DNA of 64,000 bases from Curvularia clavata (lineage: Eukaryota): positions 2,480,001 to 2,544,000 of the forward strand of contig CP089277.1 in the NCBI GenBank assembly GCA_023920165.1, written 5' to 3'. Each line of letters opens with the position of its first letter. The first letter of the stretch is position 1. The position numbers were made by a program, and so were the translations under genes. Below the pieces are notes generated by a model that was given only the letters and a program-made list of their open reading frames with translations, was not told the origin of the DNA and did not search any database. This document shows positions 41,701-44,687 of this stretch, piece after piece.

Positions 41701-42324
41701 TTAAGCACTGCCGGTAGGTCTCGGCGGCTTAACACCAGTCGGCTTTGGTGGCAAGGGCAAACCACCAGTACCAGTCGGCTTTGGTGGCAGGGGCAAACCG
41801 CCAGTTCCAGTTGGCTTCGGGGGCTTACTACCTGTGGGCCTAGGTGGCTTGCCACCCGTGGGCTTAGGCGGCTTGCTACCCGAGGGCTTAGGAGGCTCGC
41901 TATCCTCACGCTTGGCTGGCTTAACACCAGTAGGCTTGGGAAGGCCGCCAGACGGAACTCCCGAGGGGAATCCTCCAGTAGGGCGAGGTGGGAGGCCAGT
42001 AGGCACGGGGCCAGTAGGGCGAGGTGGCAACCCAGTAGGTACAGGACCAGTTGGACGGGGCGGGAAGCCCGAGGGGAATCCTCCAGTTGGGCGGGGTGGA
42101 AAGCCAGTAGGCACAGCACCAGTTGGACGGGGTGGGAAGCCGCCAGTTGGAGCGGGCAAACTGCCAGTGGGACGAGGTGGGCTGCCAGTAGGCTTGGAGG
42201 CTTGACGCTCGACGATGGGAGCAGCGAGGACGCTGGGTTATGTTAGTTCGGAACATGGGTGGGGTGGATTTGAAGGGTTGTTGGCGTACCCAGCGGCCAA
42301 GAAGAGGATAGCGGTGAACTTCAT
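41701..42324 (-). CDS. Secreted cationic Pro/Gly/Thr repeat protein (P[R/K]PTG repeats, internal KR site), about 188 aa; intron 42289-42233
   Basis: Exon 1 (35 nt) MKFTAILFLAAG, GTACGC...CTAAC...CAG intron, exon 2 VLAAPIVERQASKPTGSPPRPTG...KPAKREDSEPPKP...PPRPTGSA*. Confidence 0.85.
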
Positions 42325-44109
42325 AGTGAATGATAGAAGTGGGATGAGTAGAAGAGAATGTGAAATGAGTTTGTAAGGAATGCTTTGATGTCTTTGACTC
42401 TAAGGGACTGACGCAGAGGTTCTTATAGATTTTCGATCATAAATCCTTCTCCGTGGACTTCAGGAATCTACGTATGTGTATCTGACTAGCAAGCCTTCAG
42501 TGTAATTGCGTTGATGCAGATCCAGCTGAAACAAGCTTGAATAGATGAGAGCCAATATCCATCGAAAGGGGTGAAAGGCACCAAGATTGATGAGTCCATC
42601 AAGTCCAGACTTTGCCAAGATGCTTCTTTTTCCGGTGCCTGTGAATGGGATACGTACTTGTGGAGACTAGATGACGTTGCGAAGCTATTCTGTAAAGAGA
42701 TTTTGTGTCAAATCGCTCCAATCAGGAGGCTGTCAATCCCAAGATTGTACAAAGTGGATTCTCCCCTTGAAACATTGTACTACACCATGGGGCATGGTCA
42801 ATGAGTACATTGAGAAACGATTGGTGGTACAACACAAACGCGCAAGCTCGATCGGAATACCCAAACACTGAGCAACTGTTTTCCGTTTGAATTGCCGAAA
42901 TCGGTGCAGAAACAGGAAAGCTCCTATACCCGGAATGTTGACATATGGCTTAACATATTTCAATCTAAAACCGAAGAGGAGTACCCTGAAATATTGCGAC
43001 ATGGCGGTTTAGCCGCTTTTGCTTTCCCGAAGGAGCGGTACGAACCTATCGACGCTAGACGGAGAATTTTGGCAGATGGGCACGATGCAGTGTGCGATTT
43101 GTTTACGCACGACAAGTCGTAAGCTTATCAATGTGCGGAAACAGTTTTCGTACTTTAGTATTTCCAAGTCTCAAGTGAGGTTATTGATCAGACAATCCTG
43201 ATGCGAACTGCATCCGGAAAGAGGAATGGCTATATCTGTTGAAGAAAGACCAGTCTGTTTTGTAAGAATTCCCGCCGATATGAAAGTTCAGGTTCGCCTA
43301 GGAGAAGAACTTTGGGACTTCGCCATACCTGTCGCCATTGTTTCGCAATTGCTCTTGCGCCATCGGAGCCACGCAATCCATGCTGCCAAGACATCAATCT
43401 CCACCCCAAGATACATGAAATTGAGCTTGCGTAGAGCTTAGATATGAAACATATACAATAAATTCCAAAGCGTCATGTCCTGCAGAAAGATCGCGATGGG
43501 CTCGACTCGTGATTGGTGAGAAGATAAAAAGCCGCGAACTCTGCCGCGTCTCGCCTGCATAAATTCTCCTATCACAGGGTCGATCGCTTTAGCGAGTCAT
43601 TTCAAAACACGCGTCGAATCGAACTTGGGATGGCGGAACGATAGTGTCCGTGTCTAGTGTGCTCATTGGTGCATTACGAAGCGGCTAGAGAACAACGACC
43701 TTCCAAAGGATCTATATAAGTATGTGAAGAGAAGTCCAGATTCATGTACTAAGCTTCATTTCAAGAAATGCATCCCATACCTACCTGCACAATCCATTGA
43801 TTGCGAATAGGCATAAAATCTCTGAGAACTCACTGTTACAGCCAAAATTGAAGACAATATATGTAAAGGAAAAGCCAAAAACTCAATTGACTTATATCAA
43901 TTTAGAGCTAGCTACCTCTCACATCAAGTCATAATCATTCCAATTCATAATCTTCATTCTTCATCCCCAGCTTCTGCAGCTCATGATGGTCCAACGAGTG
44001 TATTGCTCAACTCCTGCTTTCCAACTCGAAATTGCAATTCGGATGCCCTTTCCCATGATTCTGCGCCATGTTGAGGCCGTCTCGATATGCTGACGAGGAT
44101 AACCACCAT

Positions 44110-44687
44110 CTAGTTGCGAGAGGGTGGTGGTGGAGGAGGAACACTGCCATCCGGAGGTGGTGGCGGGGGCACAGTACCATCTGGAGGAGGCGGTGGAGGG
44201 ACAGTGCCATCTGGGGGAGGTGGTGGAGGCACACCACCTGGAGGTGGAGGAGGAACACCACCTGGAGGTGGAGGAGGAGGAACACCACCAGGAGGAGGAG
44301 GTGGAGGAGCAACACCGCCAGGAGGAGGTGGCGGAGGAGCACCGCCAGGGGGAGGAGGTGGAGGAGCAACACCGCCAGGAGGAGGTGGCGGAGGAGCACC
44401 GCCAGGGGGAGGAGGTGGAGGAGCAACACCGCCAGGAGGAGGTGGCGGAGGAGCACCGCCAGGGGGAGGAGGTGGCGGAGGGGCACCACCAGGCGGAGGG
44501 GGTGGAGGAGCGACACCACCTGGTGGCGGAGGAGGAGCCTGTCGCTCAACTATGGGTGCAGCAAGGGCACTGTATATGTGTTAGTTATTGTATCGACAAT
44601 TGACACTCGAAAGTGGCATCAAATCTGAAAGTGAAGAATTGGGGTAATGTACCCAGCGGCCATGAGGATCAAAAATGCGGATCTCAT
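44110..44687 (-). CDS. Secreted polyproline repeat protein (15 runs of P5-7 separated by GG/DG linkers), about 164 aa; intron 44652-44570
   Basis: Exon 1 (35 nt) MRSAFLILMAAG, GTACAT...CTAAC...CAG intron, exon 2 ALAAPIVERQAPPPPPGGVAPPPPPPGGA...DGTVPPPPPPDGSVPPPPPPSRN*. TATAAAA at about 44812-44818. The real frame is absent from the ORF track. Confidence 0.85.
44281..44500. repeat. Near-perfect 57-nt tandem repeat (VAP6GGAP6GG units) inside the polyproline gene
   Basis: Unit accgccaggaggaggtggcggaggagcaccgccagggggaggaggtggaggagcaac starts at about 44314, 44371 and (partially) 44428. Confidence 0.85.

Follow-up and report, generated by a model that had tools for sequence, protein, structure and literature searches.

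Two neighbouring fungal genes with a common export leader and different repeat cargoes: candidate members of an apparently undescribed family of secreted Pro/Gly-rich proteins

Does a pair of neighbouring fungal genes that carry the same leader in front of different proline-rich repeats represent a duplicated export cassette with independently changing cargo, and what could such proteins be for? We revisited this question for genes A and B (Table 1) of Curvularia clavata, which lie in a window of 64,000 nucleotides (the whole stretch of DNA analysed, positions 2,480,001 to 2,544,000 of CP089277.1) on contig C4, one of the 8 contigs that make up the 32.4-Mb genome. The initial annotation had described two co-oriented genes some 1.8 kb apart, and both are indeed on the minus strand, with 1786 nt from the stop of B to the ATG of A. 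The 35-nt first exon and the phase-2 intron at one position, which it had assigned to both genes, were recovered as well, with the Gly12 codon split in each. Its description of the first exon as ending in 'AAG' holds for the residues, Ala-Ala-Gly, but not for the DNA, which ends in GCTGG. With so short a first exon, genes of this kind are hidden from scans for open reading frames and thus easily missed.

Table 1 Features of the A/B locus (positions within the window)
Feature	Position	Strand	Remarks
Gene A	ATG 42324, stop ends 41701	-	188 aa
Gene A exon 1	42290..42324	-	35 nt; codes the hydrophobic signal core
Gene A intron 1	42233..42289	-	57 nt, GT..AG, phase 2; joined in X1, X3 and X6 contigs
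Gene A exon 2, coding part	41701..42232	-	signal end, propeptide, Pro/Gly/Thr repeat cargo
AAPIVERQ of gene A	42202..42225	-	predicted signal cut and predicted Kex2-type site IVER/Q (rule from the available text of PMC8528282)
Internal Lys-Arg of A, residues 119-120	41908..41913	-	no counterpart in any other model
Gene A 3' UTR intron	41610..41669	-	60 nt, GT..AG; joined in X3 and X6
36-nt (12-codon) repeat unit of A	42092..42127	-	missing in one X6 contig
TATA-like box of A	42422..42427	-	downstream sequence resembles Alternaria and L065/L113 genes
Conserved non-coding element upstream of A	43509..43573	-	blastn 78-84% to L113, L057, L108
Gene B	ATG 44687, stop ends 44110	-	164 aa
Gene B exon 1	44653..44687	-	35 nt
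Gene B intron	44570..44652	-	83 nt, phase 2; joined in a single X5 contig
Gene B exon 2, coding part	44110..44569	-	propeptide and 15 Pro5-7 runs, GG or DG hinges, 62% Pro
AAPIVERQ of gene B	44539..44562	-	back-translated pattern scan
TATA-like box of B	44813..44818	-	downstream sequence unlike A and orthologues
DUF1168 gene	46362..46982	-	upstream synteny anchor
Degenerate HET-domain remnant with stops	40506..40694	+	downstream synteny anchor; tblastn E 1.3e-4, 29%

The introns were checked against contigs from four of the 23 listed runs (X1, X3, X5 and X6), three of these four being only guessed to be RNA; X6 is a root metatranscriptome. Intron 1 of gene A is joined in three of the four, and one X5 contig crosses it unspliced. 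For gene B the outcome is divided: its intron is joined in one run, by a single X5 contig of depth 2.9, but one X6 contig crosses it unspliced. Contigs over A reach depths of 587 (X3) and 518 (X6) against less than 10 over B, figures by which the genes cannot be ranked, and in X1 and X5 the contigs of both genes are low or merged with other transcripts; parts left uncovered prove nothing. The earlier suggestion that A and B act together finds no support in the present data. One X6 contig is without a 36-nt unit of A and, since only 8 letters are common at the joint, probably represents a repeat-number allele; in both X5 and X6 gene B differs in length by 3 nt at position 44462, which is in frame. 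Spliced transcripts of the orthologues L059 and L135 show expression elsewhere.

Other transcription was also seen around A. An X1 contig skips a canonical GT..AG intron of the plus strand at 42373-42428, in the promoter/5' region of A, which points to a spliced opposite-strand transcript over this gene. The interval 40018-41609, which overlaps the 3' end of A, is covered by X1 and X5 contigs, contains no ATG-started ORF above 89 aa and, together with the HET remnant at 40506-40694, is possibly a transcribed pseudogene facing A.

The pro-segment which had been noted in both genes, AAPIVERQ, is present in each, and a scan of the 32.4-Mb genome with the back-translated motif at up to one mismatch returns two sites, A and B, against none for the control; at three mismatches the scan is at background (101 matches against 113 for the control). 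Over the first 22 residues 13 are identical between A and B (46 of 66 bases), and five of the eight motif codons differ, all silently; such silent change within a conserved motif suggests that the duplication is old and has been under selection. Among 30 motif matches in the genome that were read in context, one further secreted protein was found, a class II hydrophobin (L011, contig C2, near 1946700) with the propeptide AAPLEERQA. It has AAP-x-x-ERQA in common with A and B, but carries a Cys-containing Hydrophobin_2 domain and no leader intron. As the motif also heads this unrelated protein, it is partly generic when taken alone; specific to A and B is the combination of the exact motif with the intron, the propeptide type itself being common. 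No third copy was found in the genome by protein search or with the first-exon pattern, whose 12 matches are at control level.

Judged by motif and hydropathy (2.45 in A and 2.18 in B over residues 3-15), both leaders may act as signal peptides, an A-x-A-type cut being present, and I-V-E-R, with Arg at P1, Glu at P2 and an aliphatic residue at P4, fits the extended Kex2 motif, in which Glu is tolerated at P2 according to the available text of PMC8528282. The N-terminal pyroglutamate that had been proposed is not established: the glutaminyl cyclases of Neurospora are in the ER, whereas Kex2 acts in the Golgi, and a Gln exposed there is argued to escape them (available part of PMC5241404), which makes the modification uncertain.

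Relatives were collected by scanning metagenome contigs with a DNA pattern for [LF]AAP[IV]VE[RS]Q, which gave at least 119 loci. The search pattern itself dictates the conservation of AAP[IV]VERQ among these matches, but not the length of the exon, the phase of the intron, the Pro-rich cargo or the synteny, which are independent of it. Thirteen of the 119 matches listed have an ATG and a 35-nt exon ending in GG, followed by a 48-53-nt intron (11) or in spliced form (2), the other 106 being without the 35-nt exon structure. At least four sequence types can be told apart (L051/057/108/112/118; L059/065/113/123; L060/135; L043/095), and every readable cargo among these thirteen is rich in Pro and Gly. 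A DUF1168 gene and a His-phosphatase gene lie directly upstream in L043, L095, L057 and L108, as in the window. L057 and L108 encode DUF1168 proteins that match those of named Alternaria species without a difference, and that of L043 is 73-76% alike to both; the window protein is 86% alike to Alternaria, the lineages spanning 73-86%. The M14 peptidase of the window shows 90% identity to its Exserohilum turcicum counterpart, which, with the DUF1168 value, places the fungus in the Pleosporaceae. Other fungi have kept the leader, the position of the first intron and the synteny, in keeping with the proposed duplicated prepro cassette, and the expectation that the leader is conserved while the cargo varies is borne out among the matches listed. 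The opposite case, a generic leader without syntenic conservation, applies to the motif alone and in part, as the hydrophobin illustrates, but synteny holds. A and B are members of a small gene family of Pleosporales-type fungi that adjoins the DUF1168 gene, a conserved neighbourhood of housekeeping genes which tells little about what the family does.

Several other genes of secreted type were encountered near the locus or its relatives. A pectate lyase gene (PF03211) at 36937-37761 on the plus strand is followed just downstream by a perfect (AAG)36 array (37829-37935), and the minus strand at 38566-38964 encodes, without introns, a small secreted-type protein of 132 aa with two Cys and no Pfam match, which is absent from the protein collection and is covered in X1 and X5 by contigs of very high depth. 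The L059 transcript contig continues into a second secreted-type gene with Tyr/Pro/Ser/Thr repeats, which may be an assembly join.

The tandem arrangement is real in the window, but the pair is not what is conserved: relatives with enough flank are single-copy, within about 4.7-6 kb of flank. In L113 a single gene accompanies the upstream element and the 3' element of DUF1168. These two elements lie about 240-270 nt apart in L113, L057 and L108 against 2.7 kb in the window, where B sits between the DUF1168 3' element and the A upstream element. Gene A has its core promoter, upstream element and PTGG repeats in common with single-copy relatives, including Alternaria. Leader identity to the Alternaria and L059 types is 14-18 of 22 residues for A and 14-16 for B, and a HET gene (Pfam HET on L108) faces the Alternaria gene from downstream as the decayed HET remnant faces A. 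Promoter, upstream element, leader, PTGG cargo and HET position together mark A, by sequence likeness, as the positional orthologue and B as an extra block. The simplest history is a gain of B in the window lineage, but the copy may instead date from an earlier duplication and have been lost elsewhere, since B has 16 of 22 leader residues in common with Alternaria genes and, where exon 1 ends, the same 23 bases as L057.

One distant orthologue suggests a further mode of repeat growth. The L043/L095 gene (L043 5910-8460), modelled on splice signals alone, has 24 exons and 444 aa, with 21 inner exons of 21-72 nt, all multiples of three and with phase-1 introns; these exons mostly hold one Pro/Gly/Phe repeat each and their introns are similar to one another, so that in this model the repeats would have grown by exon duplication.

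The cargo of A is 33% Pro, 19% Gly and 19% Thr+Ser (31 Thr+Ser), with 22 Lys+Arg, 22 P[TS]G motifs and one Lys-Arg, while that of B is 62% Pro, in 15 runs of 5-7 residues preceded by Ala or Val, with 2 Ser. B had been read as a neutral P5-7-GG array, which agrees with the 15 runs, but its last three spacers are DG, and it is slightly acidic. The reading of A as a P[R/K]PTG array after the R/Q site stands as regards a cationic, Pro-rich cargo, but overlooked the internal Lys-Arg at residues 119-120, where cutting would yield cationic pieces of 97 aa (net +9) and 68 aa (net +8). That the two cargoes are unrelated is true of their 4-mers, none of which is in common (cosine 0.00), but not of their Pro/Gly composition or of P-x-GG, which is enriched over shuffles in five of six cargoes (A, B, L059, L057 and L043) and was not found in that of L135, the six cargoes tested being 45-80% Pro+Gly. 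By 4-mer cosine A resembles the Alternaria and L059-type cargoes (0.20-0.22 against 0.10-0.13 for shuffles, p 0.008-0.03), whereas B is no closer to them than shuffles are.

Neither protein has a Cys, an N-sequon or, after residue 22, a hydrophobic stretch. The last 20 residues, with mean hydropathies of -0.67 (A) and -1.22 (B), are not of GPI type, the best 15-residue windows after residue 22 (0.05 and -0.28) give no membrane segment, and neither gene holds a Cys pattern or Pfam domain of hydrophobins, CFEM, LysM or other Cys-domain surface proteins. Exon 2 of A scores 23.4 against DUF1720 (PF08226; cut-off 21.4), a mark of repeats in cytosolic endocytic proteins, its C-half alone scores 18.6, and L059 has no match; we read this marginal match, which is not common to L059, as one of x-P-T-G composition. 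Similar repeats also occur outside the family. A Logan contig (P0001) encodes a secreted-looking protein of 161 aa with RPP[RK]PTG repeats behind a different leader, a likeness to A that is probably convergent, and the same genome holds, near 3166000 of contig C3, a secreted-looking protein of 600 residues (L006) with many Tyr-Pro-Ala-Ser repeats and an unrelated leader. Within the window, a long ORF at 15337-16659 with charged Glu/Arg/Lys repeats and poly-Gln is encoded by a CT-rich tandem array (15767-16053).

Searches of Pfam and PDB sequences returned no characterised family that matches A or B over the full length, the latter giving no match at all; Rfam over 39200-46400 gave no match either, and viral contigs gave 7 motif matches, none Pro-rich. 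One search of the protein collection gave 1 weak match and another 8, of which the 5 inspected look like composition matches, and searches with the leader region at near and longer lengths gave 1 and 5 candidates, none scoring. As the L059 protein is absent from this large collection though present in the Atlas, the collection seems to be without the family, and these protein searches are uninformative, not negative. The best Atlas scores, 0.81 and 0.75, are to unnamed clusters and serve as leads only. Six family motifs are absent from the literature searched, a scope outside which lie subscription journals and bioRxiv supplements, and three are absent from the supplements, in possibly incomplete files, of two KEP catalogues (PMC6339444, PMC7329392). 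Within the literature and databases searched the A/B family is thus apparently undescribed; its design, in which repeats change fast behind an export leader that stays fixed, is already familiar.

The reading we prefer, with a probability of roughly 55%, is that the family consists of secreted, Cys-free, disordered Pro/Gly polymers with a Kex2-type propeptide that serve as surface or matrix material. By the sequence rules, a 15-residue signal peptide would take A and B into the secretory pathway and Kex2 would remove a six-residue propeptide at IVER/Q, releasing a domain-free, unanchored, cysteine-free Pro/Gly chain, disordered or in polyproline-II form. The Thr and Ser of A, mostly in P-T-G, are probably O-mannosylated, and A may be cut again at its internal Lys-Arg. 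Selection would keep the export cassette and the Pro/Gly grammar (P-x-GG) but not the repeat sequence, leaving the repeats to be rewritten by slippage or, in one lineage, by exon duplication. B would have arisen when the gene was duplicated locally and the copy came to lie between DUF1168 and the A upstream element, and its cargo would have become near-pure polyproline rods with Gly-Gly hinges. The likeliest job of such proteins would be that of a non-covalently held material of the hyphal or spore surface or the extracellular matrix (a coat, gel or adhesive); to our knowledge, little has been established about the proteins of fungal adhesives and hyphal sheaths. The family also offers a small, self-contained example of how repeats evolve behind an unchanging export cassette, in which one locus presents three modes of repeat growth, and the single-copy syntenic gene of Alternaria permits a clean deletion test.

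One could also suppose that these small, secreted-type, repeat-rich and length-variable proteins with a Kex2-type propeptide are apoplastic effectors or decoys, which would form a coat on hyphae inside the plant and keep host defence proteins away from them or bind these proteins up, and B could then mimic plant proline-rich wall proteins. The spliced A transcript in the root metatranscriptome fits this, as do two genes within 5 kb, that for the pectate lyase and one for another small secreted protein, and Rsp3 of Ustilago maydis, on which the idea is modelled, is likewise a non-GPI, repeat-based protein with length polymorphism and N-terminal processing (available text of PMC5923269). Rsp3, however, has a Cys-rich domain, a Cys mutant of which was studied for function according to the same text, whereas A and B have neither this nor any other domain. 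Synteny is moreover stable among housekeeping genes across lineages whose DUF1168 proteins are only 73-86% alike, and wall mimicry is at odds with a B cargo whose 2 Ser allow no Ser-Pro4 array. We consider an effector role unlikely.

A narrower alternative concerns B, which might be a duplicate of weak expression, close to neutral, with a cargo that stems from CCN-repeat slippage and with function in A only. B is absent at the orthologous position in all three checkable lineages, its promoter differs from the one typical of the family, and splicing was seen in one of four runs, with the X6 contig crossing the intron unspliced. Its frame is nevertheless open, its splice signals are intact and a TATA-like box is present, five of the eight motif codons have changed silently relative to A, and the length differences in other runs, those at 44462, keep the frame; we take this alternative to be distinctly unlikely. 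That A is a peptide precursor, from which Kex2 frees the cationic Pro-rich pieces of 97 and 68 aa as antimicrobial or signalling peptides, agrees with a canonical P-A-K-R site between two repeat types and with the Pro/Arg/Lys composition, but is very improbable given that the dibasic site occurs in 1 of 11 models and a single site falls below the KEP definition, that no XA/XP dipeptides follow it, that the nearest UstYa match on contig C4 is 2.2 Mb away and that the orthologue cargoes of Alternaria and L059 types have only 3-5 basic residues.

Against known systems, the proposed surface polymers resemble K2PP proteins such as SnTox3 and ToxA in a predicted signal peptide, a propeptide ending in aliphatic-x-x-Arg and an LxxRQ-type junction (PMC8528282 and PMC8715435, in the text available); as in these, the extended Kex2 motif is predicted to end the N-terminal pro-region of A and B, but this propeptide is only six residues long and the mature part is without a folded domain or cysteine. 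Signal, pro-region, tandem repeats and, in A, one Lys-Arg recall KEPs, Rep1 and dikaritin precursors (available parts of PMC6339444 and PMC7329392), but the repeats of A and B are not split by Kex2 sites and no UstYa gene is nearby. Both KEPs and dikaritin precursors were rejected. A KEP is defined, in the available text of PMC6339444, by at least 4 fragments after KR/RR (or KK) cuts, at least 3 of them similar, whereas A has one KR and B and nine other models none; in the pheromone-type subset, STE13 dipeptides (XA/XP) follow the site, where A has ED and SE after KR. A dikaritin precursor would have a DUF3328/UstYa gene in its neighbourhood, but of the 17 such matches in the genome the only one on C4 is at 0.34 Mb, the locus being at 2.52 Mb (PMC7329392, PMC9632046, as far as their available text goes).

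Rsp3 and non-processed repeat proteins resemble the predicted A and B proteins in being secreted, non-GPI and repetitive, with N-terminal processing and a possible role as hyphal coat (PMC5923269, available text). Rsp3 is several times longer, however, and includes a Cys-rich region; the likeness is one of description, with no sequence link seen. An extensin-like Ser-Pro4 protein was rejected for B, whose Pro runs follow Ala or Val and whose cargo has the 2 Ser. CspA and SOWgp carry Pro-rich repeats, and by description these two would be the closest functional analogues of the proposed surface material. They are repeat-rich surface proteins tied to adhesion and wall architecture (PMC8654403, available text); CspA is GPI-anchored, whereas A and B have no hydrophobic C-terminal signal, and a CspA-type GPI-anchored wall protein was rejected on this ground (same source).

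Finally, it could be speculated that these proteins are the fungal equivalent of elastin or resilin, a secreted Pro/Gly polymer which, on losing its propeptide, would self-assemble by coacervation into the matrix of hyphae or spores, a reading we hold to be rather improbable. A threshold in Pro and Gly content for disordered polymers was reportedly described by Rauscher in 2006. Pro/Gly-rich repeat polymers form a phase-separating class, and high Pro+Gly with recurring P-Xn-G motifs is common to elastin- and resilin-like polymers and to A and B (PMC6799979, available text), an analogy of composition and not of homology, B being far richer in Pro. Were it true, polymer grammar alone would be selected and lineages would be free to rewrite their repeats, by slippage, by duplication of exons with one repeat each, or by gaining another copy, almost all polyproline, which alters the material.
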